From positions 10,448 through 74,447 of the forward strand of contig JAYSUJ010000022.1 of the NCBI GenBank assembly GCA_043719155.1: a DNA stretch of 64,000 nucleotides. The letters are read 5' to 3'. The notes beneath the pieces were generated by a model. The model saw nothing but the letters and a program-made list of their open reading frames with translations, made no database searches and was not told the origin of the DNA. Position numbers and translations under genes: made by a program. Origin of the DNA: a bacterium (GTDB lineage Bacteria > Patescibacteriota > Minisyncoccia > Phycocordibacterales > UBA5272). Of the stretch, positions 651-62,360 are shown piece after piece. Position 1 is the stretch's first letter. Each line of letters opens with the position of its first letter.

Positions 651-791
651 TCATCTTTTCTTCTTGTGCCTTTTTCTTGCACGCTTTAGAACATCACACG
701 GGTTCTTATCGGCCCATACAAAGTACGCAGCAGTGCAGATTGGCGGCAACAAGACAAAGGCTCCTATTAGAAATTTGAGCACCGTGTCCAT
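651..791 (-). CDS. Small hypothetical membrane peptide (46 aa, hydrophobic core, basic KRARKRHKKKR tail), GC-elevated
   Basis: ATG 789-791 preceded by GGAGA; translation MDTVLKFLIGAFVLLPPICTAAYFVWADKNPCDVLKRARKRHKKKR; stem-loop+T-run downstream on minus strand (~605-640). Confidence 0.3.
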   Translation of the reverse strand: MDTVLKFLIGAFVLLPPICTAAYFVWADKNPCDVLKRARKRHKKKR

Positions 792-1081
792 CCTAGTCTC
801 CTTTAGATTGAACAGTTTTAAATTCTACTCTTGTCACAAAATTATGCAAATTTTTTTGTGAGCTTGGTCGGTGCATAACCTGTAAATCTCTTGTTAAGTA
901 TGGTTTTTCTAAATTTTTGTTGGAAAAGTATATATTCTATAAACTCTTTAATTTTTTTAGTCTGAAAAACCTATATTTTATACATGTTTTTTACTTTTCC
1001 ACATAGGCCATTCTTTCAATCCATTTGTAAGTTCTATATACTTTTTATAACTCAAGAAAGTAAAGTTGAGTTTTAAAAAAT

Positions 1082-1363
1082 ATGCCATTTAGAGAACAAG
1101 ATAGAGAACAGAAACCAGTGAAGACAGTCACAACAGTTACAAGTGGGGACCGCTTTACAACACTTGCATATGTTAAGGTACTGCTAAGTGGTGAGAATGT
1201 AAATGCGGCAAAAGCAAAAATTGCATCCTATAACAGAAGTAGACCAAAAGGGATTGAACCAATCAGTTTAGATGACGTATACAAAAATGATCCAATGGAC
1301 TTTTTAAAAGTAAAGAATCGTGTTCCCCCAGATCCTAAAAGACAAACGTTTAGAAATGTTTAA
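1082..1363 (+). CDS. Hypothetical hydrophilic small protein (93 aa), GC-elevated, convergent with dnaK
   Basis: ORF-track ORF; weak RBS; followed by hairpin agctggg-tcaa-cccagct + T-run. Confidence 0.3.
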   Translation: MPFREQDREQKPVKTVTTVTSGDRFTTLAYVKVLLSGENVNAAKAKIASYNRSRPKGIEPISLDDVYKNDPMDFLKVKNRVPPDPKRQTFRNV

Positions 1364-1365
1364 AC

Positions 1366-1396
1366 AAAAAGCTGGGTCAACCCCAGCTTTTTTTGT
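1366..1396. terminator. Bidirectional intrinsic terminator between convergent 1082..1363 ORF and dnaK
   Basis: aaaaagctgggtcaaccccagcttttttt: GC stem flanked by A-run and T-run. Confidence 0.5.
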
Positions 1397-1413
1397 TAAG
1401 AGAATTTTAATAC

Positions 1414-3276
1414 TTAGTTCCCCTCTGGTTTTACTTCTTCAGGGCCAGCTTGAGTATTCTGTTCTCCCGTTTGACCTGCCTTACTCATCTCCTCGCCAAT
1501 TTTTTGCATGACTGTAGACAGATTATCTATTTCTTTTTTAATCTCTGTGCCGTCGTCTTTGGCTTTCACTTCATTTAATTTGCTGATAGCATCCTCCACC
1601 GTTTTTTTAGTATCTGAAGAAATTTTATCTCCAGCATCCTTTAAAGCCTTTTCCGCGATGTGTACAGTTTGTTCAGCTTGGTTTTTAATATCTACCAAAT
1701 CTTTTTTCTTAGCATCACTTTCGGCATTAACCTCTGCATCTTTTTTCATCTTTTCAATTTCTTCTTTTGAAAGTCCTGAAGAGGCTTCTATTCGTATTGT
1801 CGACTCTTTTCCAGAGGTTTTGTCTTTAGCTGTAACATTTAAAATACCGTTAGCATCGATGTCGAGTTTGATCTCAACTTGTGGCACTCCTCGTGGTGCT
1901 GGTGGTATGCCGTCAAGGTTAAAGATACCAAGCGACTTGTTGTCTGTTGCCATTGGTCTCTCACCTTGTAAAACATTTACTTGTACCGAGGTTTGGTTGT
2001 CCGATGCTGTAGAAAATATTTGTGACGCCTGAGTTGGTATGGTTGTATTTTTCTCTATTAACTTTGTCATCACTCCACCCATAGTTTCTATGCCAAAAGA
2101 CAAAGGAATGACGTCCAGTAGTAAAATATCTTTCACATCACCTTGTAGCACACCAGCTTGAACTGCTGCACCGAGGGCAACTACTTCGTCAGGATTGATA
2201 GATCTGTTCGGCTCTTTTCCAAAAAAATCTTTTACCGCTTCTACTATCATTGGCATACGAGTTTGACCTCCGACCATAATAACTTCTTGAATTTCAGATT
2301 TTGTAAACCCAGATGCATCTAAACATCTTTTAGCAATTTCCATGCTTCGATCAACAAATTTCTGAGCCAGTTTTTCTAACTGAGTTTTAGAAATTTTTAA
2401 CAACAAGTGTTCTGGACCATTTGCGCCACTTGTTATAAAAGGAATATTTATTTCAGCTTCCGGAACAGTAGAAAGCTCATGTTTTGCTTTTTCAGCCGCC
2501 TCGTCGATTCGTTGTAAAGCCAGAGGATCCTTAGAGACATCTATTCCAGAAGTTTTCTTGAACTCAGTGATAATGTAGGACACAATCTCTCTATCTATGT
2601 CGCGACCCCCAAGATGCGAGTCACCATCTGTACTTTTAACCTCAACAACATCTGCTGAAACTTCTAAAATTGAAATATCAAATGTCCCTCCGCCAAAGTC
2701 ATAGACAGCAATTTTTTGATTCTGTTTTTTATCAAATCCGTACGCCAAGGCAGCAGCTGTAGGTTCGTTTATAATACGTAAAACTTTAAGTCCTGCGATT
2801 TCACCTGCATTTTTAGTGGCTTCTCGTTGCTCGTTGTTAAAGTAGGCTGGCACAGTGATTACAGCTTCGGTTATCTTTTCACCTAGCTTGGCCTCTACAT
2901 CAGTTTTAATTTTTTGTAAAATCATAGCTGAAACTTCTTCTGGCCTATAATTTTTATCTCCAAGTTTAACCATGGTTCCTCCGTTGGCATCTTTGTCGAT
3001 TTTGAATGCAACACGCCCTATGTCTGCCGAAACCTCTTTGTCTGAAAATGCATGTCCCATATACCTTTTAACACCATATATTGTGTTTTGGGGATTGGTA
3101 ACAGATTGTCTTTTGGCTAATTGCCCTACAAGCCTATCCCCGTTTTTAGCAATCGCTACAACGGAAGGTGTTGTTCTGTTTCCCTCAATATTTTCGATTA
3201 TTTTAGGTGCTCCAGCTTCAATTATTGCTACTGCAGAGTTGGTTGTTCCAAGGTCTATTCCTATTATTTTTGCCAT
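1414..3276 (-). CDS. dnaK: Molecular chaperone DnaK (Hsp70), 620 aa
   Basis: [18 protein letters not shown]..., DLGGGTFD, full ATPase and substrate-binding domains. Confidence 0.97.
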
Positions 3277-3360
3277 ATGTTTTTTTGTATTAAATTTTCT
3301 ATTTAATTATTTTTTTGATAATGTACAATCTATAATCTATTTTCAATTTCTTGTCAAGCT

Positions 3361-3921: not shown

Positions 3922-4034
3922 AGTTGTATATGTGCTGATTATAGTTAAAAAAAACTATTTGTCAACAATTTACAACTTGGGAATCTATTGCCTTTAAAAT
4001 CAATTAATATATACTTTAAAAGAACAACAAACAT

Positions 4035-4574
4035 ATGCAAGAAAAACTTTCTTTGAAAAATATCTTAATAACAATTGTTCTAATGACAATTCTTTTTTCT
4101 GTCTCACTTTTCACTTATAATAAATACAGTAGTTCCGAGTCGTCCATAGCCTACACTGGTTTAGGTCAAAGTTCTGATCAAAACGAGTATGTGGTAAAGA
4201 GAGACATAGTTGTTACCTCTGCAATTTTAAACTCAGATAAAATAGAATTTGTTCAAAGGAAAATAACAGGAGGTGGTGTTAACCCTGGTTGGGTAATCTC
4301 TCTTTTGGAAACTCAGCCTAATGTATTCACTGGTAGAGTAATTGTTGATGACGGAGTCTACCAGCACCCTGTTACAGTCAAAGAAGAAGTGACTAACATA
4401 TTTGTCGGCGAGATGAAAAGTAAAGATGGAAAAAAGGAAACATTTTCAATGAAAAAAAGCCTGCAGAACTGTAAAGATGAGGAAAAAAATCTTTTTGAGT
4501 ACTCTTTGACCGGTACTTATGGGGCTACACAGTTCTTGGGTTGTGGAGGCAATATTTTATCGGAAGGGATTTAG
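4035..4574 (+). CDS. Hypothetical membrane-anchored/secreted protein (N-terminal TM/signal, 179 aa)
   Basis: Hydrophobic N-terminus ILITIVLMTILFSVSLF; no recognisable domain; divergent from grpE. Confidence 0.45.
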   Translation: MQEKLSLKNILITIVLMTILFSVSLFTYNKYSSSESSIAYTGLGQSSDQNEYVVKRDIVVTSAILNSDKIEFVQRKITGGGVNPGWVISLLETQPNVFTGRVIVDDGVYQHPVTVKEEVTNIFVGEMKSKDGKKETFSMKKSLQNCKDEEKNLFEYSLTGTYGATQFLGCGGNILSEGI

Positions 4575-6080: not shown

Positions 6081-7328
6081 TTATTTGCTATTTTTGTAAA
6101 ACTTTTCACAAAATTCCTTTTTAAAATTAAAAAAATTATCTTCTAATATTGATTGCCTTATTTTCTCTACGAGAGAGATTAAGAAATATAAATTATGTTC
6201 CGAAACTAAAATAGCCCCCAGCATCTCGTCACTTCTAAATAAATGGGCGATGTAAGCATGTGAGTACGGGTAGAGTGGCGAATTTATATCTGTAGTTATT
6301 TTACTAAAGTCTGTTTTATATTTCGAGTTTTCAATATTTATTTTTCCATTTTCTGTGAAAATCTGACCATGTCTAGCGATTCTAGTTGGGATAACGCAAT
6401 CAAAAGTATCTACGCCGTACTCAACCCCTAAGAAAAAATCTATAGGTTCACCTATACCTAAAAGATGTCTGGGTTTATTTTCAGGCAAAACTTCCGTGAC
6501 ACTTTTCACTGTTTTATCCATGTCTTCTTTTGTAAAACTACCACCGATACCAAAACCATCAAAATCCATTTTTGATAGAATTTCTGCTGATTCTTTTCTT
6601 AAATCTTCGTACCCTCCACCTTGGACTACTGCAAACAAAGCTTGTTGCTCACCTGTTGCACTACTTACACCCAACTTTTTATGTTCATCGACACATCTTT
6701 TTGCCCAACGATGTGTTCTGTCCATTGCAGCAATTTGGTATTCACGAGTTGCAAGTGGTGAGGTGCATTCGTCAAAGGCAAAAAAAATATCTGCACCAAG
6801 CTTATGTTGTATCTGCATTGATACTTCTGGGGTGAATCTGTGTGTTGAGCCATCAATAAAACTCTTAAAAGTGACACCTTCCTCATCAACTTTTGCCATT
6901 TGTTCTTTTGTCGACTTAACAACCTTGTCCAGCATGCTTTGCTTTTCCTCAGCTATTTTTTTACTAGTCGCAATTTTAGTAACTCCAGAGTTAAAAGCCG
7001 CACCCAAACTTAGTACTTGAAACCCGCCAGAGTCCGTCCATGTTGGGCCAAAATAATTCATAAATTTTCCGAAACCACCGGCTTGCTCAACAATCTCCAT
7101 ACCAGGTTGTAAATAGAGGTGATAAGTATTTGCTAAAATACTTCGGCTACCAATTTTTTCTAATGAGGAGACCTGTACACCTTTAACTGTGGCTTTGGTC
7201 CCTACTGGTACAAAACAAGGTGTTAAAATATCTCCGTGTGGAGTAATTATTCTACCTGCTCTAGCTAAAGCTGCTTCAAAGCTTTTTTTTTGTATCTTAA
7301 ATGAGAATTCTTTATTTTTATTTTGCAT
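6081..7328 (-). CDS. tgt: Queuine tRNA-ribosyltransferase (tRNA-guanine transglycosylase)
   Basis: TDSGGFQV catalytic Asp, GIGEPID, FDCVIPTR, ..SEHN; 415 aa with ~25-aa internal insertion; zinc Cys triad absent (see findings). Confidence 0.88.
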   Translation of the reverse strand: MQNKNKEFSFKIQKKSFEAALARAGRIITPHGDILTPCFVPVGTKATVKGVQVSSLEKIGSRSILANTYHLYLQPGMEIVEQAGGFGKFMNYFGPTWTDSGGFQVLSLGAAFNSGVTKIATSKKIAEEKQSMLDKVVKSTKEQMAKVDEEGVTFKSFIDGSTHRFTPEVSMQIQHKLGADIFFAFDECTSPLATREYQIAAMDRTHRWAKRCVDEHKKLGVSSATGEQQALFAVVQGGGYEDLRKESAEILSKMDFDGFGIGGSFTKEDMDKTVKSVTEVLPENKPRHLLGIGEPIDFFLGVEYGVDTFDCVIPTRIARHGQIFTENGKINIENSKYKTDFSKITTDINSPLYPYSHAYIAHLFRSDEMLGAILVSEHNLYFLISLVEKIRQSILEDNFFNFKKEFCEKFYKNSK

Positions 7329-8857: not shown

Positions 8858-9280
8858 CTAATAGTTGTAGCCTCCGTAATAATCATTTTTCCTAAAAAAC
8901 CTGGAGGTAAAGAACATGTAGAGTAAGAAAATCATAAAAGGGTAAAAAGTTATCACATAACTACACAGAAATCTAAACAAAAGAACTATGTAATCTGTGA
9001 TGGTCCACAAAACTGAAGCTGCTCCATTGGTTCTCTGCAACTTTAAAACCAGTAAGTCATCTTGCCTTTCAAAAAAATTATAGCCACCAATTCGCACATT
9101 TTCTAAAGAATCCAGAAAAGTACTTGGCGCAGTTTCGGTCACTTGACTGCCCTCTTCAGTAACAATGTTTACTAGCGACAACAGACTTTTTCTAGCTTGT
9201 CTCTCAAGCCCCGTGTCGCTTATGGTTAAAATAACTGAAATTAATAGAAAAACAAATGTAAGTCTTTTGTAATTAAACAT
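8858..9280 (-). CDS. Hypothetical protein with N-terminal signal/TM and C-terminal TM (140 aa)
   Basis: ORF-track ORF, hydrophobic termini, no recognisable domain. Confidence 0.4.
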   Translation of the reverse strand: MFNYKRLTFVFLLISVILTISDTGLERQARKSLLSLVNIVTEEGSQVTETAPSTFLDSLENVRIGGYNFFERQDDLLVLKLQRTNGAASVLWTITDYIVLLFRFLCSYVITFYPFMIFLLYMFFTSRFFRKNDYYGGYNY

Positions 9281-10773: not shown

Positions 10774-11199
10774 ATGAAAACAAACAAAGTATTCGTTGCA
10801 GGTATCGCTTATCGCGACCTTGACGGAAATCCATTAACAGGAAGACATGGTGACCAAAAACTTGCAGACCTTTTTGGAAGAGCTGGTAAAATAGCTATGA
10901 AGAAATTGGCAAGAAGAGATGGTACTGAAGTTGAGGTTGTAGCAGCAAACATTGCTGTAGACCGAGACACAAAATTATCTCGTGGGTTCGGATTCGTAGA
11001 ATTTGAAACAGTTGAGGCTGCTGAAAAGGCAATCGAAATGTTCAACGGCTTCGAATTTGAAGGCCGTGTTATAACTGTACGTTTCTCAGAACCTCGTCCA
11101 GAAGGAGATGCAAGACCTGCACGTTCTTCAGGAGGTTACGATAGAGATGGCGGAAATGGTGGTGGTAACGGTGGTTACTCTCGTGACCGAAGAAATTAA
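10774..11199 (+). CDS. RNA-binding protein with RRM (RNP-1 RGFGFVEF) and Gly/Arg-rich C-terminal tail
   Basis: KVFVAG RNP-2, RGFGFVEF RNP-1, GGYDRDGGNGGGNGGYSRDRR tail; GC-elevated; own terminator. Confidence 0.8.
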   Translation: MKTNKVFVAGIAYRDLDGNPLTGRHGDQKLADLFGRAGKIAMKKLARRDGTEVEVVAANIAVDRDTKLSRGFGFVEFETVEAAEKAIEMFNGFEFEGRVITVRFSEPRPEGDARPARSSGGYDRDGGNGGGNGGYSRDRRN

Positions 11200-13103: not shown

Positions 13104-13207
13104 TTAATTATAGCATTTTTTTATTTTATTCTAAAGTTTTTTATATAGACAGAGTTATTTATTTGTGTTATTATATATTTAGTGTCAACAGTGGAAAGGA
13201 TGATTTT

Positions 13208-13423
13208 ATGCTGAGTATTACCATGACACGGAAGGCAAAGTTCCTTCGCAATATGCTTATTGTTATCTTGATAACCACCTTAGGTCTAGCGGAGCTGCAA
13301 GGCAACGCAGGACTTAGCTCTATCCAGTGGATAGGGGTTGTAGTTGGAAAGTGGGCGGGTTACCTGCTCACTATCTACACAGGTTGGAAACTCTTGCTGG
13401 CAATGTTTGCGAAGGGAAAGTGA
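13208..13423 (+). CDS. Small hypothetical membrane protein (71 aa; ORF-track ORF starts 13163) antisense within ATP synthase operon, GC-elevated
   Basis: RBS GGAAAGGA 7 nt before ATG 13208; MLSITMTRKAKFLRNMLIVILITTLGLAE... two hydrophobic helices; followed by terminator. Confidence 0.35.
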   Translation: MLSITMTRKAKFLRNMLIVILITTLGLAELQGNAGLSSIQWIGVVVGKWAGYLLTIYTGWKLLLAMFAKGK

Positions 13424-13442
13424 GCTGTTAAATTGGCTTGCG

Positions 13443-13474
13443 CCGCTGGTTTCCCAAGATCAGCGGTTTTTTTA
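13443..13474 (+). terminator. Plus-strand intrinsic terminator inside atpG-atpD gap
   Basis: ccgctgg-tttcccaagat-cagcgg + TTTTTTT; on minus strand the T-run precedes the stem so it is not a minus-strand terminator. Confidence 0.55.
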
Positions 13475-17154: not shown

Positions 17155-18027
17155 CTAAACACCACAACTGTTCGTAACCTCTAGAAACTTTTCAATATCC
17201 CCGTCTTTTATTCCTCTAAAAAAATCCGTCATGTTGTTGTCAAAACCAATGTCATTTACATAGTGTAACTCCGCAAAGACTATATGCTCCTTTGTTAGTG
17301 CTTCGTCGCCGGAAAAACCAAAGTAGTTTTTAATCTGAGAAATTCTCTCCATTATTTCATTTGGCCTTTGCATGTATTCTCTGTCTTCTAAATTTTCAAT
17401 GAACATAAAGTTCAAGCCTTGATTAAAATATAAGCCTGCTAGACTGAAATCCAATTTTCTTAGCATGTGACCTTTTTCATGTGCAACTGCAACATTCATT
17501 GCTTTTAGAGGATATACCTTAGCATTTAATTTTTTCCCCCAATTTGGAACAACTCCTTTTTCCATTGTAGATTCCAGAACACTTTTTTTTGAAAGGTCAA
17601 CTTTTGTGTATGTATTGGATATCTCAATTTGTAGATCCAAGATTCTACTTAGCAGCTCTTTACTGTATGGAGTTTTATTGTAAAATGCAGCAGAAGACTC
17701 ATTGATAGCCTCATTCACCATGTCTCTCAATTCTTTGGGTATACTTACATCTACAGGGTTTTGCACATCCTGAAGAAAAGTATGGAAAAACGGTGTTCTG
17801 ATTAAGGTATACATGCCATCTGCAAATTCTCCGGGATTGTTCATTTGCGAATTTAAAAGCAGGTTCAAAAACTTTTCTCTCACTTTCAAATTTCGCAAAC
17901 GTGAATACATAAGTTCGCAGTCATTACATTCTAAATTTGGCTTTAGAGTTTCCGAATATTCACCACCTAAAGGTGATTTAAGTTTTTTAACTACTTTGTG
18001 TTCTGACTTTTGACTCGGAAATAACAT
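17155..18027 (-). CDS. Hypothetical soluble protein with HExxH (HEKGH) putative zinc-metallopeptidase motif, inserted between atpB and atpE
   Basis: AVAHEKGHML at residues 183-187 (nt 17467-17481); no signal peptide; 290 aa. Confidence 0.55.
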   Translation of the reverse strand: MLFPSQKSEHKVVKKLKSPLGGEYSETLKPNLECNDCELMYSRLRNLKVREKFLNLLLNSQMNNPGEFADGMYTLIRTPFFHTFLQDVQNPVDVSIPKELRDMVNEAINESSAAFYNKTPYSKELLSRILDLQIEISNTYTKVDLSKKSVLESTMEKGVVPNWGKKLNAKVYPLKAMNVAVAHEKGHMLRKLDFSLAGLYFNQGLNFMFIENLEDREYMQRPNEIMERISQIKNYFGFSGDEALTKEHIVFAELHYVNDIGFDNNMTDFFRGIKDGDIEKFLEVTNSCGV

Positions 18028-18033: not shown

Positions 18034-18888
18034 TTAATGTCCCTCTTGTCCCACTTCTTTGACAACTAAAACATAGTATACAGCTGTCAGACAACCTATA
18101 ACTACCGTTTGTATTATTGCCACCATAAAGTCAAAACCTAGCCAAACAGCAGGAAGAGCTATAGCAAAAATACCAGTTAAAATAGCTAGTAAAATTTCCC
18201 CGGCAAACATGTTACCGAAAAGACGCAGTGAAAGCGAGATTATCTTTACAAATTCTGAGATAAGTTCTAGTAAGCCAACAAATAACTCTATCAAACCCAT
18301 AAAAAAACCACCTACTCCCTGCTTAGCACCATTCCAAACCAAATGTAGTGGCACAAACCTTTTAAAATACCCAAAGAAACCCCAGTTTTTAACCCCGAAA
18401 AACTGCATGGATAAAACAATGGTTAAAGCAAGAGGAAAAGTTACATTTATGTCACTAGTAGCCTTTCTAAAAAAAGGAACAATCTGCCCACCTTCTAACC
18501 AGGTGAACTGAGAAATTATAGGGAAAGACCCGATTATGTTTATGCTGCCTACTATTAGGAAAATTGCAGCTATTGGGAAAAGGAGTTGAACATTTCTGTG
18601 GGCTTTGCCCCCAGTTAATGAGTCAACAAGTGATTCAATACTAGTCAAGATCATTTCAACTAAACTTTGAAAGAAAGATGGTACCTCTTTAAATTTTTTT
18701 ACAGTTAAATAAAAAAGTATAAACAGTACTGTGATAAAAAAAAGAAAAGTGGTCGAATTTGAAATCGGCCAACTTCCAACATGTCCAAGAGTATCTGCCT
18801 TTACCCCTGGCATATGTGGGTGAGGAAAGAGTAGCTTTTGGGTTTCTGTCTGCTCAAGCTCAGGTTTTGCAACTTGTGTGTGTTCCAT
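18034..18888 (-). CDS. atpB: ATP synthase Fo subunit a
   Basis: LSLRLFGNMFAGE with conserved Arg, 5-6 TM. Confidence 0.9.
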   Translation of the reverse strand: MEHTQVAKPELEQTETQKLLFPHPHMPGVKADTLGHVGSWPISNSTTFLFFITVLFILFYLTVKKFKEVPSFFQSLVEMILTSIESLVDSLTGGKAHRNVQLLFPIAAIFLIVGSINIIGSFPIISQFTWLEGGQIVPFFRKATSDINVTFPLALTIVLSMQFFGVKNWGFFGYFKRFVPLHLVWNGAKQGVGGFFMGLIELFVGLLELISEFVKIISLSLRLFGNMFAGEILLAILTGIFAIALPAVWLGFDFMVAIIQTVVIGCLTAVYYVLVVKEVGQEGH

Positions 18889-19638: not shown

Positions 19639-19740
19639 GCAAAAAAGTATAGCAAACTAATTTTTTTAATTAATATTGACCCAACTTTAATTGTGTGTTA
19701 ATCTATGGATAAGTAGTAAACTCTGTACGGAGAAAAACCC

Positions 19741-40326: not shown

Positions 40327-40335
40327 CAAAAATTT

Positions 40336-47322: not shown

Positions 47323-50244
47323 CTAGAGTACTATATTTACAATCTTGTTTTTAACTACAATAATTTTTTTAGGAGCAACTTCACCTACCCATTTTTTGTA
47401 ATTTTCCAGATCTTTCGCCAGCTTTATCACTTCATCATCGCTTAAATTTACAGCACAAGCAAAAGAGTCTCGCAACTTTCCATTAACTTGAAATGCAATG
47501 TTGGTAGTATTGGCAACTATTTTAGTTGCGTCAAACTTTGGCCAAGAAGTTTTGTGTATAGAATAGTTTGTATTAGATAGACTTTCCCAAATCTCTTCAG
47601 TAAAAAATGGACAGATAGGTGTTAAAAGTTTGAGAAGAGTCTTGTAATCTTCTAAATTAATTTTCTGACTTTTGGTTTTGTCTACGGCATTTGTAAAAAT
47701 CATCAGTTGAGCTATGGCAGTGTTAAACTGCAACTTTTCATAATCCTCTTCACACTTTTTAATAGTTTGATTCAACACTGTTTCTATGTTTTCGTCTTTT
47801 ATATCTACTTCATTTATTTTGTATTGCAAATCCCAAACTCTCTCTATAAATCTTCTTGGACCTACTATAGCCTTTGAGTTCCAATTTGAAGAGTCGTGGT
47901 ATGGGCCTGTAAAGGCCAAATAAAGCCTTAAAGTATCAGCCCCAAATTGTCTTGCTACGTCGTCTGGGTTGATGACATTTCCATATCGTTTAGACATCTT
48001 TCGCCCATCTTCTCCCATAATTAAGCCTACAGCTTCTAGTCTCTTAAATGGCTCTTTTGTGGTCAGTACATTTTTGTCAAATAAAAACAGGTTCCAAAAA
48101 CGACCATATATCAAATGTCTTGTGGCATGCTCTAAGCCTCCTAAATAAATATCTACATCACCCCAATATTTTTCCTCAACACTGCCAACCAAAAAGTTTT
48201 CATTGTTTGGGTCCATGTAGCGCAACCAATACCAACTACTTCCTGCCCATTGCGGCATAGTGTTTGTTTCTCTTTTAAATAATTCCCCCTTTAGGTCACT
48301 TACAAATTCCCCACTTTCATTTATAAAACCATAAACGTCTGTGAATTCTTTAATATTTGCAAGCGGTGACTCGCCGTCACCTGTTGGCTCATAGCTTTCT
48401 ACTTCAGGTAAAAATACAGGCAATTCAGTATCTGCAACAAGATAATTTTTCTTTACTTCGTTTCCAATACTGTCTTTCTCAATTCTAGAAACAATCGGAA
48501 AAGGTTCACCCCAATATCTTTGTCTGGCAAAAACCCAATCTCGTAATTTGTACTTTGTTACCATTTTTCCACCTACAAAATCAACAATTTTTCTGCCAGC
48601 CTCTTCACTTTTTTGTCCATCAAATTTTCCAGAATTAACTAAAATGCCATTTTCCGTAAATAGTTTACCATTTAAATATTCGTCGAAATAAAATTTATGA
48701 TGTTTGGTAAATTTTAATGAAGTTAAAATTTCTTCTTTGGTTTTCCAGTCACCAATTTTAGTTCTCTCATCTACAATTTCTCCACGCTCATCATTTTCTA
48801 AAATAACTTCAAAAATCGCATCGTGACAAAGCTCTTCAACAACTTTTCTTGGTTTGTACCCTCTACTAAAAGCATTTTCAAAAATAGTTTTAACGGACTT
48901 AATATTTTTGTATCCTGTTTCTTCTGTAACCTCTCTTCTTACAGCATCGTCAGCACTTTCTCCTGTCTCTAGGCTGCCACCCGCCATTCCCTCTTCCGCC
49001 CCAAAGTCTATTACATAATACTTTTCCTCTGACCAGTGTTTTACTATAGCTGTGGCAGCTTTAAATTCACGAATGTTTTCTTCACTTTTTGGCGTACTTG
49101 GTCCATCCATAAGTGTAAAAGGTGCTACTACTTGTTTTTTTTCAATCCCAAACATATTTGCGAACTCGGCGTCTCTTTCGTCATGTGCTGGCACAGCCAT
49201 TATTGCCCCTGCACCGTAACTTGCCAAAACATAGTCGGCAATATAAACTGGAACTTGTTTTTGGTTGGTTGGGTTTATAGCAACTACACCTTCTAATTTC
49301 ACCCCAGTTTTTTCACGGCCTTCTGCACCTCTTTCAATTTCAGTTTTATCCTTAGCTCCTAAAATATACTTTTCAACCTCAATGCTATTTGAAATTAAAT
49401 TTTTTTCCAAGTATTCTTTTACAAGTTTATGTTCTGGTGCAAATACACAGTAAGTACAGCCAAATAATGTGTCAGGACGTGTGGTAAAAATTGTAAATTT
49501 GTTTTTTACTTCTCCACAAACTAAGTCAAAAACTATTTCCGCCCCCTCACTTTTTCCTATCCAGTTTCGCTGCATCTCTTTAATACTTTCTTTCCACTCC
49601 AAATTGTCCACCCCACTTAAAAGCTGCTCTGCATAGTCGGTGATGCGTATCACCCATTGTCTAATAGGTTTTTTTTCAACTACACTACTGCAACGCTCAC
49701 ACTTACCATCTTCTAAGTCCTCATTTGCTAGACCAGTTTTACAGCTTGGACACCAATTTATCGGCTCAAAGCTCTCATAACAAAGTCCTGCTTTGAAAAG
49801 CTGTTTAAAAATCCATTGCGTCCATTTATAAAATTTAGGATCTGTAGTATTAACAGTTCTGTCCCAGTCGTAAGAGAGTCCCAACATTTTCATTTGTTTC
49901 TCGAAATTGTCAGTATTTTTTTTAGTAGAGATTTTTGGATTTATTTTATTTTTAATAGCAAATTGTTCTGCAGGTAAACCAAAAGCATCCCAACCTGTAG
50001 CATGCAAAACGTTATACCCTTGCATTCTTTTTAGACGCGAATAAATATCTGAAGCTGAGAAAATTTTAGCGTGCCCAGCATGCAAACCCTCGCCACTTGG
50101 ATAAGGAAACATGTCTAAAACATGCATCTTTTTTTTACTTAAATCTAACTCAGTTTTGTACAACTTAGCTTCTTCCCATTTTTGGGCCCATTTAGCTTCA
50201 ATATCTTTAGGACTATAGAGTTTTTTAAGATTGTTTTGTGACAT
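47323..50244 (-). CDS. leuS: Leucyl-tRNA synthetase with inserted Nudix hydrolase domain
   Basis: HAGH (PYPSGEGLHAGH), editing CP1 TTRPDT, KMSKR; 973 aa; residues ~378-527 form Nudix fold with canonical Nudix box. Confidence 0.95.
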   Translation of the reverse strand: MSQNNLKKLYSPKDIEAKWAQKWEEAKLYKTELDLSKKKMHVLDMFPYPSGEGLHAGHAKIFSASDIYSRLKRMQGYNVLHATGWDAFGLPAEQFAIKNKINPKISTKKNTDNFEKQMKMLGLSYDWDRTVNTTDPKFYKWTQWIFKQLFKAGLCYESFEPINWCPSCKTGLANEDLEDGKCERCSSVVEKKPIRQWVIRITDYAEQLLSGVDNLEWKESIKEMQRNWIGKSEGAEIVFDLVCGEVKNKFTIFTTRPDTLFGCTYCVFAPEHKLVKEYLEKNLISNSIEVEKYILGAKDKTEIERGAEGREKTGVKLEGVVAINPTNQKQVPVYIADYVLASYGAGAIMAVPAHDERDAEFANMFGIEKKQVVAPFTLMDGPSTPKSEENIREFKAATAIVKHWSEEKYYVIDFGAEEGMAGGSLETGESADDAVRREVTEETGYKNIKSVKTIFENAFSRGYKPRKVVEELCHDAIFEVILENDERGEIVDERTKIGDWKTKEEILTSLKFTKHHKFYFDEYLNGKLFTENGILVNSGKFDGQKSEEAGRKIVDFVGGKMVTKYKLRDWVFARQRYWGEPFPIVSRIEKDSIGNEVKKNYLVADTELPVFLPEVESYEPTGDGESPLANIKEFTDVYGFINESGEFVSDLKGELFKRETNTMPQWAGSSWYWLRYMDPNNENFLVGSVEEKYWGDVDIYLGGLEHATRHLIYGRFWNLFLFDKNVLTTKEPFKRLEAVGLIMGEDGRKMSKRYGNVINPDDVARQFGADTLRLYLAFTGPYHDSSNWNSKAIVGPRRFIERVWDLQYKINEVDIKDENIETVLNQTIKKCEEDYEKLQFNTAIAQLMIFTNAVDKTKSQKINLEDYKTLLKLLTPICPFFTEEIWESLSNTNYSIHKTSWPKFDATKIVANTTNIAFQVNGKLRDSFACAVNLSDDEVIKLAKDLENYKKWVGEVAPKKIIVVKNKIVNIVL

Positions 50245-50292: not shown

Positions 50293-50880
50293 ATGGTCAA
50301 ATTAAAATCACCTCAAAATTTTGATGAAAAAATCACAAGTGCCATGGGGTCTGTGCCCTCTATCATAATCCACACACTTTTATTTATCACTTTTCTTTTA
50401 TCCCCGTTTTTTGGATTTGACCTAGAGAAATCACTTTTGGTTTTAACCACAGTAGTTTCTTTAGAAGCTATATACTTGGCTTTATTTATTCAGATATCCT
50501 TAAATAGGCAGAGTAAAACAATAGCCGAGGTTTCCGAAGACATTGAAGAAATCCAAGAGGACGTAGAAGATATTCAGGAAAATGTTGAAGAAATCCAAGA
50601 GGACGTAGAGGAAGTCTCAAAGGATGTAGAAGAAATTAACGAAAGTGTAGAGGAGATAGAGAAAGATGTAGACGAACTAAGTGAGGACGTAGAAGAGTTG
50701 CAAGAAGACCTCGAGGAGTCCGAAAAAGAAGATGAAAATGAAGAAAGAACTGAAAAAGAACAAGAAAGAATCGAGAATCAAAAAGAAAAGATACGGCAAG
50801 CTGACCAAAAAAAGCGTCTTGAAAAAATGGAGAATCTTTTAGAAAGTCTTTTAGGAGAAATTTCTAATTTAAAAAAATAA
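50293..50880 (+). CDS. Membrane-anchored protein with highly acidic heptad-repeat coiled-coil tail
   Basis: 2 N-terminal TM, then repeats EDIEEIQEDVEDIQENVEEIQEDVEEVSKDVEEINESVEEIEKDVDELSEDVEELQEDLEE. Confidence 0.55.
   Translation: MVKLKSPQNFDEKITSAMGSVPSIIIHTLLFITFLLSPFFGFDLEKSLLVLTTVVSLEAIYLALFIQISLNRQSKTIAEVSEDIEEIQEDVEDIQENVEEIQEDVEEVSKDVEEINESVEEIEKDVDELSEDVEELQEDLEESEKEDENEERTEKEQERIENQKEKIRQADQKKRLEKMENLLESLLGEISNLKK
50533..50720 (+). repeat. ~9 tandem 21-nt (7-codon) repeats encoding (E/D)(D/I)VEEIQ units
   Basis: Direct inspection: gaagaNatNcaagaggacgtagaa periodicity. Confidence 0.6.
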
Positions 50881-50989
50881 TTTTGTTTTTTAAATGATTT
50901 AGTGTAAAATGTCAATACTTGTGGTAAATCTATCACAAAGTGATTTACGCTTTGTCGGTAACCCAGATAAAACGCTAAAGGAGACATCC

Positions 50990-51370
50990 GTGTCAAACTA
51001 TGCTTTCTATTTACTGGTTCTGCTTGGTTTGTGCCACTGGCTTGGTGACTTTTCACATCTGACTACAAAATGGATGCAGGAAGCCAAGCGTTACGGACAT
51101 CCGTTCGAACCCATCCTTGCACACGCATGTGCGCACGGAGGCTTGATGTGTCTCGCACTGCAACTAAGCAGTGCAAGTCAAACCAGGATACTATGGACTT
51201 GTTTGTTTCAAGTGTTGATGCACTTTTGCATCGACATGACAAAAGGCGCGCTAAATGGGCTGTACCCCAGCTTGGAAAACCAAAGAGAGAAACCATATTG
51301 GTATATCTTTGGCTTCGACCAGTTTTTGCACTTCTTTACTATCTTGGTCATGGTTAAAGCCCTAACCTGA
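50990..51370 (+). CDS. Hypothetical polytopic membrane protein with conserved His/Cys residues (126 aa; ORF-track ATG start 50909)
   Basis: RBS AAGGAGA 5 nt before GTG 50990; MSNYAFYLLVLLGLCHWLGDFSHL..HACAHGG..HFCID; GC-elevated. Confidence 0.45.
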   Translation: MSNYAFYLLVLLGLCHWLGDFSHLTTKWMQEAKRYGHPFEPILAHACAHGGLMCLALQLSSASQTRILWTCLFQVLMHFCIDMTKGALNGLYPSLENQREKPYWYIFGFDQFLHFFTILVMVKALT

Positions 51371-51387
51371 TTTGAAGAAGGGGTGTA

Positions 51388-51420
51388 AGTGGTCGGCAAC
51401 GCAAGTTGCCGACCTTTTTA
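51388..51420 (+). terminator. Intrinsic terminator, copy 1 of duplicated hairpin
   Basis: gtggtcggcaac-gcaa-gttgccgacc + TTTTTA. Confidence 0.65.
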
Positions 51421-51432
51421 TATTTCTTTTTT

Positions 51433-51461
51433 TTGCATTTTCAAATCATTTCAGTTAAAAT
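51433..51461 (+). promoter_or_regulatory. Near-consensus sigma70 promoter for Cys-rich peptide gene
   Basis: TTGCAT (51433-51438) - 17 nt - TAAAAT (51456-51461). Confidence 0.55.
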
Positions 51462-51510
51462 GTAAAAGCAGGAAAAAACTGCAAAACAGAAATGCATTAG
51501 GAGAGTAAAA

Positions 51511-51687
51511 GTGGACACCACCAGTACACCCTCAACCAAATTCTGCATCGGAGACCCAGGCGACGAATGCGACTCAAAGAGTTGTTCCTGCTGCAAAAAG
51601 AGCAGCAAGAAAAGCCAAACGAAGGAACTTCAAAGCCAGGGCGACAACCTAACCAAATTTGTCGTTCTATCTTTTGCAAAAAGATAA
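51511..51687 (+). CDS. Cys-rich small peptide (58 aa, GTG start), not in ORF track
   Basis: RBS AGGAGAG 5 nt before GTG; VDTTSTPSTKFCIGDPGDECDSKSCSCCKKSSKKSQTKELQSQGDNLTKFVVLSFAKR; own promoter and terminator. Confidence 0.4.
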   Translation: MDTTSTPSTKFCIGDPGDECDSKSCSCCKKSSKKSQTKELQSQGDNLTKFVVLSFAKR

Positions 51688-51706
51688 ACGCAGAACATTG
51701 AATAGT

Positions 51707-51747
51707 GAGTGTGTAAGTCGACCACAAGTCGCTTTCACACTTTTTTT
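51707..51747 (+). terminator. Intrinsic terminator after Cys-rich peptide gene
   Basis: Imperfect GC stem gtgtgtaagtcgac..gtcgctttcacac followed by TTTTTTT. Confidence 0.5.
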
Positions 51748-51761
51748 ATTTAAATCTAAAT

Positions 51762-51789
51762 TTGACTTTTTATAAATTTATAGTAAAAT
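51762..51789 (+). promoter_or_regulatory. Near-consensus sigma70 promoter for 51845 gene
   Basis: TTGACT-16 nt-TAAAAT. Confidence 0.55.
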
Positions 51790-51844
51790 ACTAGGACTCA
51801 TACGGCATCCGCTGTAGTGAGAATCCTAGAGAAGGAAACTGCCT

Positions 51845-52162
51845 ATGGCAGACCAAGACAAAGAGCTCGACGAAATCCTGGCAAAACTCAAGAGCGCCGG
51901 AATCGGAGTCTCCGTCATGCAAGGATGGGACGTCGCCAAGTTGTTGTCCGAAGTAACTCGCGAGGACAACAACCAGTTCCCTCCGGAACTGACGGCAAAA
52001 GCTGCTGGTATGCGCGACGCCTTCTTCCAAGAATACGAAGTTGTCGTAAAGGCCCTAGCGGTCAAACACGGCATTGATCTCCTTGATGGAAATCTCGAGA
52101 TCGCCATCGATATGGTTGAGCTCGCCAAGGCCGGCAAGTCGCAAGGTGAGCCGGCAGCCTGA
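51845..52162 (+). CDS. Hypothetical acidic soluble protein (105 aa), GC-elevated
   Basis: RBS GAAGGAAA before ATG; MADQDKELDEILAKLKSAGIGVSVMQGWDVAKLLSEV..; terminator copy 2 follows. Confidence 0.45.
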   Translation: MADQDKELDEILAKLKSAGIGVSVMQGWDVAKLLSEVTREDNNQFPPELTAKAAGMRDAFFQEYEVVVKALAVKHGIDLLDGNLEIAIDMVELAKAGKSQGEPAA

Positions 52163-52184
52163 TAGCTCTCAGGCAACTCTAGAA

Positions 52185-52216
52185 AAAGTAGGTCGGCAAC
52201 GCAAGTTGCCGACCTT
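52185..52216 (+). terminator. Intrinsic terminator, copy 2 of duplicated hairpin
   Basis: gtaggtcggcaac-gcaa-gttgccgacc + TTTTAT; 27/28 nt identical to 51388-51415. Confidence 0.65.
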
Positions 52217-52268
52217 TTATCTTTTTCTTTATCTTTCTTTAAATATTTCAAAATATATTTATTTAAAA

Positions 52269-55035: not shown

Positions 55036-55130
55036 GTATAATATTATTACTGTACAAATTGCTCTAATATTGTATAATTAAATTCTTGCCGTCTTTTCCC
55101 CATCTTAAAACAAATATGGAGTAACCTCAA

Positions 55131-55286
55131 ATGAACTTCAATCCAGAGCTAACAGTATGGTTTATGTTAGGCTTCATTGCCTACGTTTCCTACAAGGCAT
55201 ACAAGGATGGAGATTTCTTTATTTCTTGTATCTTTAGTGGATTTACTTACTCACTGCTTATATTTACATGTTCTAGATACATTTGA
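55131..55286 (+). CDS. Small hypothetical membrane peptide (51 aa), not in ORF track
   Basis: GGAGTAA before ATG 55131; MNFNPELTVWFMLGFIAYVSYKAYKDGDFFISCIFSGFTYSLLIFTCSRYI. Confidence 0.25.
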   Translation: MNFNPELTVWFMLGFIAYVSYKAYKDGDFFISCIFSGFTYSLLIFTCSRYI

Positions 55287-55314
55287 ATTCATTCTTTGTT
55301 GTTAGAACAATACA

Positions 55315-55351
55315 AAACCCGTGAAATTTTTTCAAAAAATTTCACGGGTTT
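55315..55351. terminator. Bidirectional terminator (long perfect inverted repeat) between convergent genes
   Basis: aaacccgtgaaatttttt-c-aaaaaatttcacgggttt. Confidence 0.6.
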
Positions 55352-55376
55352 CATTTTTAAACATAAGAACATCTTA

Positions 55377-60125: not shown

Positions 60126-60428
60126 ATTTTGTAGATTTATAGGTAATAAGGTAAATTAATTGAAATTTTGAGACACCAAAAGAATTACTCTCTTTGTGTT
60201 GGGTATGAGTATATAAATTTTTCAATTAAAAACAATATTTACAGCTCAGAAAATGTGTTGAAATTTTTTAAAAATCTCTATATTTTTGTTTGGAGCAATT
60301 TCCAATCATTTTTGAAGATGTAAAGGGTAAAAAGTTATCCACCAAACAACAAAAAAAATAGAATTTGCTTGAAATTTGCTTTTCAGGTAGTATTTAATAG
60401 TTCTAACTCCAGCAGGAAAGTGAAGTTC

Positions 60429-60689
60429 ATGACAAAAAATGTCAGCATGAGAGATCTGGATGAGGCCGAAGAGCTAGCACTGGAACAACTTGTGAAAGCT
60501 CGTAAAGAGAGGCAGCAACGCATCGGTCCATTGGCCCAAGCTCTGCAGCTTGAAATTAAAATTGCAGAAAAAAAGCTGAAAAATCTACAGGAAAAATGTG
60601 CCGCAGCTAGCCACAGGCCAGGTGCTGGTTCACATATAGATGTGCATATTTGGGTTTGCAGTATCTGCGGCGCTAACTGTAAACCATAA
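60429..60689 (+). CDS. Small hypothetical protein (86 aa; ORF-track start 60369) with coiled-coil and C-terminal CxxCxxxC, GC-elevated
   Basis: RBS AGGAAAG before ATG 60429; ..HIDVHIWVCSICGANCKP; terminator follows. Confidence 0.35.
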   Translation: MTKNVSMRDLDEAEELALEQLVKARKERQQRIGPLAQALQLEIKIAEKKLKNLQEKCAAASHRPGAGSHIDVHIWVCSICGANCKP

Positions 60690-60699
60690 GATCGGCAAT

Positions 60700-60735
60700 G
60701 GGGCTTGGCAAGATTGCCAAGCCCCATCTTCTTTT
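60700..60735 (+). terminator. Intrinsic terminator
   Basis: ggggcttggcaa-gat-ttgccaagcccc + ATCTTCTTTTT. Confidence 0.6.
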
Positions 60736-60745
60736 TATAATAAAA

Positions 60746-62050
60746 CTATTTCAAAAAATTCTTTTTACGCAAATTTTTATGATAAGCCAATGAAAATCTA
60801 TGGACTTCTGCATTTGCTAAAATTATTTCTTGCTTAAATTTTTCCACAATTTCCCTGTCCCCCAAAATACTTTTAGCTTTATGATTTTTGTCTTTAGTTA
60901 CGGCAACAACTTTTATAGCACTTTTTTCCTCTCCTATTTTAGGAGAGGTTAGGTGAGGTAACTCACTTAATATTTTCTCTACTACATCTACATGTCTCTG
61001 GTCACCATCTACCACTACCACGTCCGGTATACCCCAGTCCAAGTGCTTCATTCGCCTTTCAAAAAGCTCTCTCAACCCTTCTAAATCATCATTTTTGTCG
61101 GTAGAGATTTTAAATTTTTTATACTCTTGTTTTGCCACCACTCCACCCAAAACAACAGCCATGGCCCCCACCCTGTCCTGTCCAGAAAGGTGGGCAATGT
61201 CATAGGCTTCTATACGAATATGTTTATCCTCTTCTTTTATATCTTTAGAAATAAGATGGGCGTCCCGAATATGCTCAAGGGCGAAAAGCATTTCCTTAAC
61301 CTTTTGAGCCTCTTCAAATTTTAACTCTTTTGAGAGAGTTAACATATCATTTTGTAAATCTTGCCTAACCTTTTCCCCATTACCTTCTAAAAAAGTAATC
61401 ATTCTTTCTATAATTCTTTTATATTTTTTTGCATCACACACTCCGGCACAAGTACCAGGACATAAGCCGATCTGATACGAAAAACATGGTTTTTTCTGCC
61501 AAGACTTTTTAGAGTCAAAAACTTCACACTTGTCTCTAAAAGGAAATATTTTTCTGATTAATTTCAAACTCTCTCTGGCATATTGGCCATTTGGGTAAGG
61601 CCCGAAAGTTTTTTTAACTTTAATAATTTCACTTTTAAAGTTTCCTAAAAATTTACTCTTTAAAAGCAAATTATTTTCTTTATCTATATCTCTTAGTCTA
61701 GCCAAAACCACTCTTGGAAACTTTTCTTCTGTCACCACAAGTACAAAATAGCTCTTGTCGTCTTTGGAAATAGTATTGTACTTTGGTAAATGTTTTTTAA
61801 TTAGCTCAGTTTCTAAAATTAGCGCCTCCAAAACGCTTCTGGTGGTTTGGAACTTTACAGAATCTGCCAAGGTTACCATGTTGGCAATATGTAAACCTCT
61901 CTTGTGTAAAATATCATCATCAAAATAACTGCGTACCCTACTTTTTAAACTTGTGGCTTTGCCAATATATAAAATTTCTTCATCAAGCATAAAGAAATAC
62001 ACACCAGACTCATCTGGAAGATTTAAGTTTTGTAGGTCAGGCAATTTCAT
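60746..62050 (-). CDS. uvrC: Excinuclease ABC subunit C, short form lacking C-terminal (HhH)2
   Basis: GIY-YIG (GVYFFMLDEEILYIGKA..R), 4-Cys cluster, UVR motif, RNase H-like endonuclease (AYDIAHLSGQD); 434 aa. Confidence 0.8.
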   Translation of the reverse strand: MKLPDLQNLNLPDESGVYFFMLDEEILYIGKATSLKSRVRSYFDDDILHKRGLHIANMVTLADSVKFQTTRSVLEALILETELIKKHLPKYNTISKDDKSYFVLVVTEEKFPRVVLARLRDIDKENNLLLKSKFLGNFKSEIIKVKKTFGPYPNGQYARESLKLIRKIFPFRDKCEVFDSKKSWQKKPCFSYQIGLCPGTCAGVCDAKKYKRIIERMITFLEGNGEKVRQDLQNDMLTLSKELKFEEAQKVKEMLFALEHIRDAHLISKDIKEEDKHIRIEAYDIAHLSGQDRVGAMAVVLGGVVAKQEYKKFKISTDKNDDLEGLRELFERRMKHLDWGIPDVVVVDGDQRHVDVVEKILSELPHLTSPKIGEEKSAIKVVAVTKDKNHKAKSILGDREIVEKFKQEIILANAEVHRFSLAYHKNLRKKNFLK

Positions 62051-62070
62051 AGTTGAAATATAACATAAGT

Positions 62071-62098
62071 TTGCAAATACTCTAAGTTGTGCTATTAT
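62071..62098 (+). promoter_or_regulatory. Near-consensus sigma70 promoter
   Basis: TTGCAA-16 nt-TATTAT. Confidence 0.5.
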
Positions 62099-62146
62099 CT
62101 AAAAACTGTGTCTTTGAACACAGAAATAACTGGGAAGGAAAACTGC

Positions 62147-62311
62147 ATGCCACCACGCAAGTCCAATGGCAAACCACTGACTGAAAACAAAAAAACTCCA
62201 AACAAACGGGGCGCCTCAAAACGCTCACGTCACATGCGGCGACGTGAAGAGCAGACAACAAACCTGCGAAACCTCTCGCGCAAGCAGGACGACAGCCAGT
62301 CCGCAAATTAA
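62147..62311 (+). CDS. Small highly basic hypothetical protein (54 aa; ORF-track TTG start 62087), GC-elevated
   Basis: RBS GGAAGGAAAA 4 nt before ATG 62147; MPPRKSNGKPLTENKKTPNKRGASKRSRHMRRREEQTTNLRNLSRKQDDSQSAN; terminator follows. Confidence 0.35.
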   Translation: MPPRKSNGKPLTENKKTPNKRGASKRSRHMRRREEQTTNLRNLSRKQDDSQSAN

Positions 62312-62331
62312 CTTTCCAAACAAATTTTTTT

Positions 62332-62360
62332 GGCGGCGGACCGAAGGTCCGCCGCTTTTT
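62332..62360 (+). terminator. Intrinsic terminator
   Basis: gcggcggacc-gaa-ggtccgccgc + TTTTT; second weaker hairpin cgact-caaa-agtcg with T-runs on both sides at 62386-62412. Confidence 0.6.

Follow-up and report, generated by a model that had tools for sequence, protein, structure and literature searches.

Ten GC-rich, Shine-Dalgarno-led small-protein units at gene junctions of a Patescibacteria chromosome: probable horizontally acquired cassettes

We analyzed a window of 64,000 nucleotides (positions 10,448 to 74,447 of contig JAYSUJ010000022.1) in which ten small, GC-rich open reading frames (ORFs), each with its own predicted expression signals, lie in spacers between housekeeping genes. 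The G+C content (GC) of the window is 35.9%. On sequence grounds it is a piece of a Paceibacteria-like chromosome of the candidate phyla radiation (CPR, Patescibacteria), known from metagenomes only. The best match of AtpD among contigs taken at one genome per species was a Candidatus Paceibacteria metagenome-assembled genome (MAG; 81% identity), followed by MAGs labelled Saccharibacteria, then Magasanikbacteria and Uhrbacteria; scans of genome and metagenome contigs returned distant relatives only (AtpD at most 81%, YchF at most 65% identity). The backbone runs on the minus strand and contains dnaJ, dnaK, a malic enzyme gene, a complete F-type ATP synthase operon, gatC/gatA, ligA, dnaG and pilin-related genes and, further along, rpoB/rpoC, mnmA, leuS, ychF, nrdA/nrdB, uvrC and clpB. 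Native genes are present on the plus strand at 4035, 9383, 10774 and 50293. The GC at third codon positions (GC3) of native genes ranges from 0.24 to 0.36 (mean 0.30), and ordinary intergenic gaps have a GC of 0.17 to 0.30.

The first-pass annotation of this window had proposed that thirteen small ORFs share one architecture with a visibly raised GC. All thirteen were found at the coordinates given. Quantification of the composition retains ten of them, 651 on the minus strand and 13208, 19741, 21860, 40404, 50990, 51511, 51845, 60429 and 62147 on the plus strand, with a GC of 0.448 to 0.547 and a GC3 of 0.38 to 0.63. A scan for GC islands outside native coding sequence found the same ten, together with atpE, tRNA-Cys, two native gene ends and a patch at 117-416; this patch, considered as an eleventh island, was rejected because it is the Gly/Phe-rich region of dnaJ (minus strand). 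The other three listed ORFs have native composition and were set aside. ORF 1082 (1082-1363, plus strand, 93 aa) has a GC of 0.369, a GC3 of 0.24 and no Shine-Dalgarno (SD) motif, and its terminator is bidirectional and common to dnaK. ORF 10774 (10774-11199, plus strand) encodes an RRM_1 RNA-binding protein with a GC3 of 0.24; it is native, since relatives carry it at the same position with 72-88% identity and its composition is that of the host. ORF 55131-55286 (within 55059-55358, plus strand, 51 aa, described earlier as membrane-like) has a GC of 0.34 and a GC3 of 0.38; with its extended -10, GGAG motif and terminator it could be an older, ameliorated member.

The ten units, which we call by the first coordinate of their ORFs, have a common layout: a -35/-10 pair with a spacer of 16-17 nt, often TG-extended; a leader of 30-79 nt; an SD motif 5-10 nt ahead of the start codon; an ORF of 46-126 codons; and a GC-rich hairpin followed by a T-run. 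Within a unit GC climbs stepwise, with averages of 0.18 (promoter), 0.39 (leader) and 0.48 (ORF as well as 3' end). The near-consensus promoters that had been reported are visible at all ten units (40404 having a weak -10 only), but promoter-like hexamers by themselves show no enrichment in DNA so rich in AT (62 seen, 56.8 expected), so that the unit promoters count only alongside the other signals. The purine-rich ribosome-binding sites and the terminators are likewise visible, the SD motif in 10 of 10 units and a hairpin with T-run at each. Nine of the ten oppose the backbone (binomial p=0.02), and the earlier statement on the minus-strand position of essentially all conserved genes was nearly right, given the four plus-strand exceptions. 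What that annotation proposed, a separate set of small coding units that carry their own signals and are not accounted for by the backbone, is supported. Together the units cover about 3.7 kb, or 5.7% of the window.

Unit 651 (600-849, minus strand) is the only one co-directional with the backbone, and the dnaJ promoter and gene directly follow it. Its ORF (651-791) encodes 46 aa with one hydrophobic segment, a basic tail and a net charge of +8; its signals are the promoter TTGCAT-16-TAGAAT at 822-849, the SD AAAGGAGA and a terminator at 600-629. All further units are on the plus strand. Unit 13208 (13146-13473) lies inside the atp operon, between atpG and atpD, and its ORF (13208-13423) encodes a membrane-like product of 71 aa with a net charge of +7; it has the TG-extended promoter TAGACA-17-TATTAT, the SD AAAGGA and a terminator at 13442-13473, the T-run of which overlaps the atpG stop codon. 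Unit 19741 (19676-19948) lies between gatA and the 227-aa gene heading the atp cluster; its ORF (19741-19890) encodes 49 aa with two hydrophobic segments, preceded by TTGACC-17-TAATCT and the SD GGAG, and its terminator (19918-19948) is flanked by an A-run and a T-run and is therefore probably bidirectional. Unit 21860 (21769-22186) lies between ligA and gatC, and its ORF (21860-22132) encodes a soluble product of 90 aa with two GW-containing repeats; its signals are TTGACA-17-TAATAT, the SD AAAGGA and a terminator at 22155-22186. Unit 40404 (40378-40703) is downstream of an inverted tRNA-Leu(UAA) and convergent with mnmA; its ORF (40404-40655) encodes a basic product of 83 aa with 4 Cys, behind the weak -10 TGTGTTTAACT and the SD AAAGGA, and its terminator (40676-40703) overlaps the mnmA stop codon.

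Three units form a cluster. Unit 50990 (50883-51419) has an ORF (50990-51370) of 126 aa read from a GTG, which encodes a DUF3307 membrane protein, with the TG-extended promoter TTGTTT-16-TAAAAT, the SD AAAGGAGA and a terminator at 51391-51419. In unit 51511 (51433-51747) the ORF (51511-51687) encodes 58 aa with 5 Cys; promoter, SD and terminator are TTGCAT-17-TAAAAT, AGGAG and 51709-51747. Unit 51845 (51762-52218) has an ORF (51845-52162) for an acidic product of 105 aa that is predicted to be helical, the promoter TTGACT-16-TAAAAT, a GC-rich leader of 55 nt, the SD GAAGGA and a terminator at 52191-52218; the GC of this ORF is 0.547, and its values at the three codon positions (GC1, GC2, GC3) are 0.67, 0.34 and 0.63. 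Unit 60429 (60345-60736) is situated between the uvrC stop and the conserved nrdA regulatory region; its ORF (60429-60689) encodes 86 aa with a coiled coil and a C..H..CxxC motif, with a promoter at 60369-60396, the SD AGGAAAG and a terminator at 60700-60736. Unit 62147 (62071-62360), between clpB and uvrC, has an ORF (62147-62311) of 54 aa with a net charge of +11, the TG-extended promoter TTGCAA-16-TATTAT, the SD GAAGGA and a terminator at 62332-62360. The adjoining region up to clpB (62366-62672) has no convincing ORF and no Rfam match; a second hairpin with T-run between A-runs (about 62380-62410) and 120 nt of moderately higher GC (about 62411-62530) were seen within it, and it could be a small RNA or a decayed unit.

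The units differ from the host genes in the way their translation would start. An SD-like motif, defined as GGAG, GAGG, AGGA or AAGG 4-18 nt upstream of the start, is present in 10 of 10 units and in 3 of 48 native genes (Fisher p=5e-9), as well as in 5 of 85 genes called in four close relatives. Conversely, 18 of the 48 native genes and none of the ten units have a TATAAT-like (-10-like) hexamer ending 4-12 nt ahead of the start codon, which is a signature of leaderless messenger RNAs (mRNAs). Because of these two frequencies the lineage seems, as far as sequence can tell, to rely largely on leaderless or SD-independent initiation; minus-strand examples of such native genes are 6081-7328, 8858-9280, 18034-18888, 21408-21722 and 27308-29041. 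Codon usage differs as well: the relative synonymous codon usage of the units is uncorrelated with that of native genes (r=0.03, compared to r=0.83 for native samples of equal size), and TTA accounts for 2 of 94 Leu codons in the units but for 236 of 746 in native genes. SD leaders and codons foreign to an SD-less, often leaderless host are the strongest evidence on the origin of the units, and this contrast was not part of the first-pass annotation.

The units are very probably protein-coding and not chance ORFs. The sense ORF takes up 72-91% of each promoter-to-terminator body, and a length of this order was reached by only 1 to 94 of 2000 dinucleotide shuffles per unit (p from 0.0005 to 0.047). 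GC-rich islands in AT-rich genomes are often RNA genes, and islands bounded by a promoter and a terminator, with sense-strand folding z-scores from -0.2 to -3.5 and moderately stable folds at 51845 (z=-3.5) and 13208 (z=-2.4), could be structured non-coding RNAs or antisense regulators with incidental ORFs, as had been suggested at first. We regard this as very improbable: no unit has an Rfam match even at E<=5 (only two tRNAs in the window reach the gathering score), the fold scores are modest, the ORFs are much longer than in shuffles, and the SD is correctly spaced in all ten. Protein-level signals argue in the same direction, namely a Pfam and PHROG match for 50990, conservation of the protein of 60429 and a coding-type GC1>GC2 for 51845. 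Regulation by antisense pairing finds no support either: the units are wholly contained in intergenic spacers, and no overlap in antisense with a flanking gene was seen.

The products are heterogeneous accessory proteins and not one family, contrary to one of the initial proposals: all pairwise blastp E-values exceed 0.4. They comprise four membrane peptides, three proteins with Cys/His motifs, one very basic, one acidic and one GW-repeat protein, six of the ten being soluble. ORF 50990 is a DUF3307 protein (PF11750; 50.1 bits against a cut-off of 23, E=3.5e-13, residues 8-123) and matches phrog_2470, a membrane protein of the category 'moron, auxiliary metabolic gene and host takeover' (1.6e-14). 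ORF 51845 shows GC1>GC2<GC3, the pattern of a gene from a GC-richer genome. The two repeats of ORF 21860 follow a helix-GW-strand pattern, which we take to resemble small DUF4177/DUF1737-type domains, the DUF1737 match being weak. AlphaFold2 models built from single sequences reached a mean pLDDT (predicted local distance difference test) of 57 for 51845 and 54 for 21860. At the DNA level the only similarity among units is a terminator of 28 identical nt (GGTCGGCAACGCAAGTTGCCGACCTTTT) at 51391-51418 and 52191-52218, 800 nt apart and after unrelated ORFs, which implies a common source or local copying; this hairpin sequence was not found in IMG/VR. Since the units share no other DNA or protein similarity, an origin as dispersed repeats or miniature inverted-repeat transposable elements (MITEs) was rejected.

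Homologues are rare. Nine of the peptides, concatenated and searched exhaustively with HMMER against 1.84 billion representatives, gave three self matches and one homologue (in relative L163, described below); six peptides had no match and two more matched only themselves. Searches of phage, plasmid, IMG/VR, PADLOC, NCBIfam and PDB-sequence collections gave nothing significant. Six of the ten ORFs are missing from all public gene calls, and standard annotation therefore overlooks this layer.

The earlier suggestion of toxin/antitoxin-like peptides applies to part of the set only. Type I toxin-antitoxin-like or addictive membrane-peptide modules, persisting as selfish elements, would account for the hydrophobic members (651, 13208, 19741, possibly 50990) and would be compatible with a horizontal origin. 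All of them are short and combine one or two hydrophobic segments with a basic tail, and each has a strong predicted promoter and terminator. A hydrophobic helix with basic tail fits only three to four of the ten, 6 of the 10 products being soluble, and a hydrophobic peptide under about 60 aa is found at 651 (46 aa) and 19741 (49 aa), with 13208 at 71 aa and the other seven not fitting. Nor did we find an antitoxin RNA: there was no sign of an antisense RNA gene, nor of a convergent promoter inside a unit or downstream of it, the promoters seen on the minus strand point away from the units, no paralogous copies exist, and no PADLOC or Pfam toxin family matches. We consider such modules quite unlikely.

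Relatives were obtained through protein searches with AtpG and LeuRS (L164/L165, L167, L170, L171 and L172, with 66-80% identity in housekeeping proteins); as they do not cover the sites of 651 and 62147, the junction comparison excludes these two units. Gene order is the same in the window and its syntenic relatives, and the junctions of the relatives are tight. The ligA-gatC junction (unit 21860) measures 10-18 nt in L164 and L167 and 482 nt in the window, counted from the corrected gatC start; the junction of gatA with the next gene (unit 19741) 11 nt in L164 and 313 nt in the window; the atpG-atpD junction (unit 13208) 55-61 nt in L167 and L170 and 383 nt in the window. From a nitroreductase gene or ychF to the DUF948-like gene the distance is 34 nt in L171 and 4 nt in L172, compared to 1388 nt in the window, and the cluster at 50881-52268 (units 50990, 51511 and 51845) is wholly absent from both relatives. 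The uvrC-nrdA junction (unit 60429) has 242 AT-rich nt in L172 and 620 nt in the window. Downstream of mnmA, L172 has 20 nt followed by tRNA-Leu and tRNA-Cys, both co-directional with the backbone. Because the junctions of the relatives are short (4-61 nt, or 242 nt and AT-rich), the units at comparable junctions are insertions.

The conservation of homologues, proposed as a check by the first-pass annotation, was found for one unit: tblastn of the unit peptides against the fetched DNA of relatives gave a match for 60429, in L163, and for no other. Extra genes in the same operons of relatives are on the same strand and AT-rich. A generic count of GC islands across relatives was too noisy and was replaced by the junction-by-junction comparison and by a combined detector of raised GC, SD and terminator. 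In the 64-kb window this detector returned 10 ORFs, nine true units and one ORF nested in unit 50990, the terminator of 51511 being missed; in about 117 kb of the closest relatives it returned none, at thresholds that also missed two milder L163 paralogues.

Apparent insertions of this kind may arise when short higher-GC fragments of other organisms are joined into a CPR contig during assembly or binning, and a metagenome assembly as source and the six ORFs missing from public gene calls would suit such an artefact. It is, however, hardly credible here. An independent Logan assembly of run SRR22198340 is base-identical over 9952-31403, including units 13208, 19741 and 21860; the units are seamlessly embedded, with terminators that abut or overlap neighbouring stop codons; and ten chimeric joins, each delivering one complete gene, are implausible.

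The corrected gatC start is M46 (21722), placed by alignment with relatives. The longest gatC ORF (149 aa, GTG start) has a spurious N-terminal extension of 45 residues (21723-21857, minus strand) covering the promoter region of unit 21860. In L164, TGT seemed to be split by an insertion relative to L165; this was rejected, as the two near-identical contigs (99.96%) differ there only by a frameshift.

Other features of the backbone were noticed as well. A 290-aa ORF of native composition and without Pfam match (17155-18027, minus strand) lies between atpB and atpE, which are directly adjacent in L164, L165 and L167. At different atp junctions L164 and L167 carry further same-strand, AT-rich ORFs, one of 140 aa (atpG-atpD) in the former and two of 116 aa and 91 aa in the latter; in this clade the atp operon is an insertion hot spot for small genes. 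In more distant Patescibacteria the atpG-atpD spacer is enlarged in L054 (9646-10001), with an antisense small ORF and a terminator-like hairpin and no GC elevation, and in L052 (591-1080), with a same-strand ORF that presumably encodes a GxxExxY-type protein. The tRNA-Leu(UAA) upstream of unit 40404 (40244-40327, plus strand) is inverted relative to the backbone and lies about 300 nt from tRNA-Cys (39864-39939, minus strand), whereas the two are 1 nt apart in L172 (19083-19238) and co-directional with mnmA and rpoB. The tRNA-Leu genes of the window and L172 are orthologous, with compensatory differences in the acceptor stem; the window copy lies directly ahead of the unit and comes with a promoter (40207-40234) and a terminator (40337-40362) of its own. 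In LeuRS (47323-50244, minus strand) the editing domain is followed by an inserted NUDIX domain (residues about 419-506); the insert is present in most listed homologues and absent in some close relatives, e.g. L172 (804 aa). The DUF948-like protein next to the cluster (50293-50880, plus strand) contains an acidic E/D-rich repeat, in seven tandem copies at 50536-50717 with a spacing of 21-33 nt; a gene of 193-205 aa matches it in position and orientation in L171 and L172.

The nrdA site is the one place where an insertion boundary is mapped. The closest relative found, L163, has an NrdA 85% identical to that of the window, compared to 71% for L172. Upstream of nrdA, about 220 nt of regulatory DNA are conserved in the window, L163 and L172 and end at GTTATCCACCA (window 60334-60344). 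In L172 the uvrC stop follows directly; in the window and L163 a small-gene unit does. As the conserved region ends at GTTATCCACCA in three genomes, the boundary falls at 60344/60345 and the promoter of the unit is inside the inserted DNA. L163 carries two paralogues of the 60429 protein here, fast-evolving homologues with 40% and 27% identity that retain C57, H62, C77 and C80; an SD, a terminator and a moderately raised GC of 0.40-0.42 (GC3 about 0.38-0.44) are found for both. The variable region upstream of nrdA in L163 also holds, at 2562-3068 and 3956-4417, a DUF3800 gene (GC 0.27) and a GC-elevated ORF, whose N-terminus we take to be flagellar hook-associated or rod protein-like, which would be unexpected in a CPR genome. 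This suggests that the locus repeatedly receives foreign DNA.

A vertical explanation has to be weighed at this point. The units might be a native, lineage-specific small-protein layer, with GC and SD leaders kept by selection, for instance because their mRNAs are stable, structured and leadered and under separate translational control. The 60429 family keeps position, SD and raised GC in a relative with 85% NrdA identity, the promoters are native in style, and the sense-strand fold z-scores are slightly negative (mean about -1.7). Against it, the units other than 60429 are absent from comparable junctions and from all relative DNA fetched, most of the peptides have no match among the 1.84 billion representatives, and codon usage is uncorrelated even with that of the highly expressed atpD, rpoB and dnaK. 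We judge a native layer unlikely; the foreign SD leaders and codons, and the absence at comparable junctions in relatives, lead us to prefer horizontal acquisition.

The ten units are, in our opinion, probably horizontally acquired, self-contained small-protein expression cassettes, resembling the morons of phages and situated at intergenic junctions of a streamlined Patescibacteria chromosome. Each would form its own monocistronic transcription unit, with a sigma-70-type promoter, an SD leader, an ORF of non-native codons and a Rho-independent terminator, in a host whose own genes would be read without SD and often from leaderless mRNAs. The opposite orientation of nine units may reflect what selection tolerates, as a mostly unidirectional terminator opposed to a host operon would not stop it; most unit terminators have no upstream A-run, from which we infer that they would let the opposed operon pass. 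The AT-rich flank of a unit could in addition supply a new promoter for the downstream host gene. Host genes beside insertions have leaderless-type promoters of their own: the box TGGTATAAT (21720-21737, minus strand) stands 6 nt upstream of the corrected gatC start, and TATAAT-type boxes lie upstream of atpD. A new promoter from an insertion flank is seen at gatC, which it would now drive, and is probable at atpD and at the 227-aa gene and atp cluster; the steps leading to it may have been those just outlined.

Several observations weigh against acquisition. Searches of phage, plasmid and IMG/VR collections revealed no donor. The units are not accompanied by an integrase, a transposase, a target-site duplication or terminal repeats, and the direct and inverted repeats that flank them are no better than in shuffles. 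Promoter style (TG-extended -10) resembles that of native promoters. Housekeeping proteins share no more than 65-85% identity with those of the closest syntenic relatives, which makes the timing of the gains coarse. Finally, the 60429 family has either been on its site since before the split of the window and L163 lineages or been acquired there repeatedly, and in L163 it keeps elevated GC3 and SD at the same site. Simple amelioration after one old transfer should have erased these features. Their retention calls for, and suggests, either selection on composition or repeated acquisition at a hot spot fed by a common donor pool.

A bolder version of the acquisition hypothesis, which we hold to be rather unlikely, is that this lineage recently acquired an entire set of foreign mini-genes with SD leaders, at a density near one per 6 kb and as complete transcript-shaped modules. 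If so, CPR bacteria would have an undescribed route of gene capture, such as competence-driven illegitimate insertion of short environmental DNA or integration of complementary DNA copies of foreign transcripts, and a dual regime of translation initiation in which imports are read by a mechanism that the core genome has abandoned. The view of CPR bacteria (Patescibacteria) is one of extremely streamlined episymbionts; should recent, individually expressed ORFan imports make up about 6% of a housekeeping region, gene gain in this group would be more active and finer-grained than island-based views hold. SD-led imports in an SD-less core would provide a simple signature, at the level of sequence, by which imports could be recognised in other CPR genomes, and the contrast raises the question whether these ribosomes still use their anti-SD. 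Small membrane and Cys-motif proteins would be plausible candidates for host-interaction or conflict functions in organisms not yet culturable alone.

Among known systems, integron cassettes, MITEs and insertion sequence (IS) elements are likewise small single-gene modules added to a genome, but no integrase, attC, terminal inverted repeat or target-site duplication is found at the units, and the units carry their own promoters and are dispersed, the three clustered at 50.9-52.2 kb excepted. Type I toxin-antitoxin loci (Hok/Sok, TisB/IstR, Fst) share with three to four units small hydrophobic peptides with basic tails, strong terminators and an intergenic position; they differ in that no antisense RNA partner and no repeated copies were found here and most units encode soluble proteins. 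Short, compositionally atypical ORFans were reportedly described by Daubin and Ochman in 2004. The units resemble these ORFans, or horizontally acquired genomic islets, in being short, atypical in composition, lineage-restricted and without homologues. Classic ORFans are AT-richer than their host and often clustered in larger islands with mobility genes, whereas the units are GC-richer, single, provided with complete expression signals and placed inside conserved operons.

The closest parallel is the moron of phage genomes, defined in the concept of Hendrix and Juhala as an independent transcription unit between conserved phage genes, i.e. extra DNA compared to related genomes, with a deviating GC and its own promoter and terminator (PMC3594210). 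The units are extra DNA of the same sort, with 313-1388 nt where syntenic relatives have 4-61 nt (13208, 19741, 21860 and the 50990-51845 cluster); their GC of 0.45-0.55, compared to 0.36, differs from that of the flanking genes; each appears to be a single gene with predicted promoter and terminator of its own between genes of a conserved operon; and the product of 50990 matches a PHROG of the moron category. They differ from morons in their residence, which is in cellular housekeeping operons (atp, gatCA, nrd, uvrC) and outside any phage or prophage; among the window genes scanned, none was recognised as a phage or integrase gene. They are also numerous (ten units per 64 kb), GC-richer than their surroundings, and SD-led in a host with leaderless or SD-less initiation. 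As residence in a phage genome is lacking, we would say that a unit works like a moron, not that it is one.

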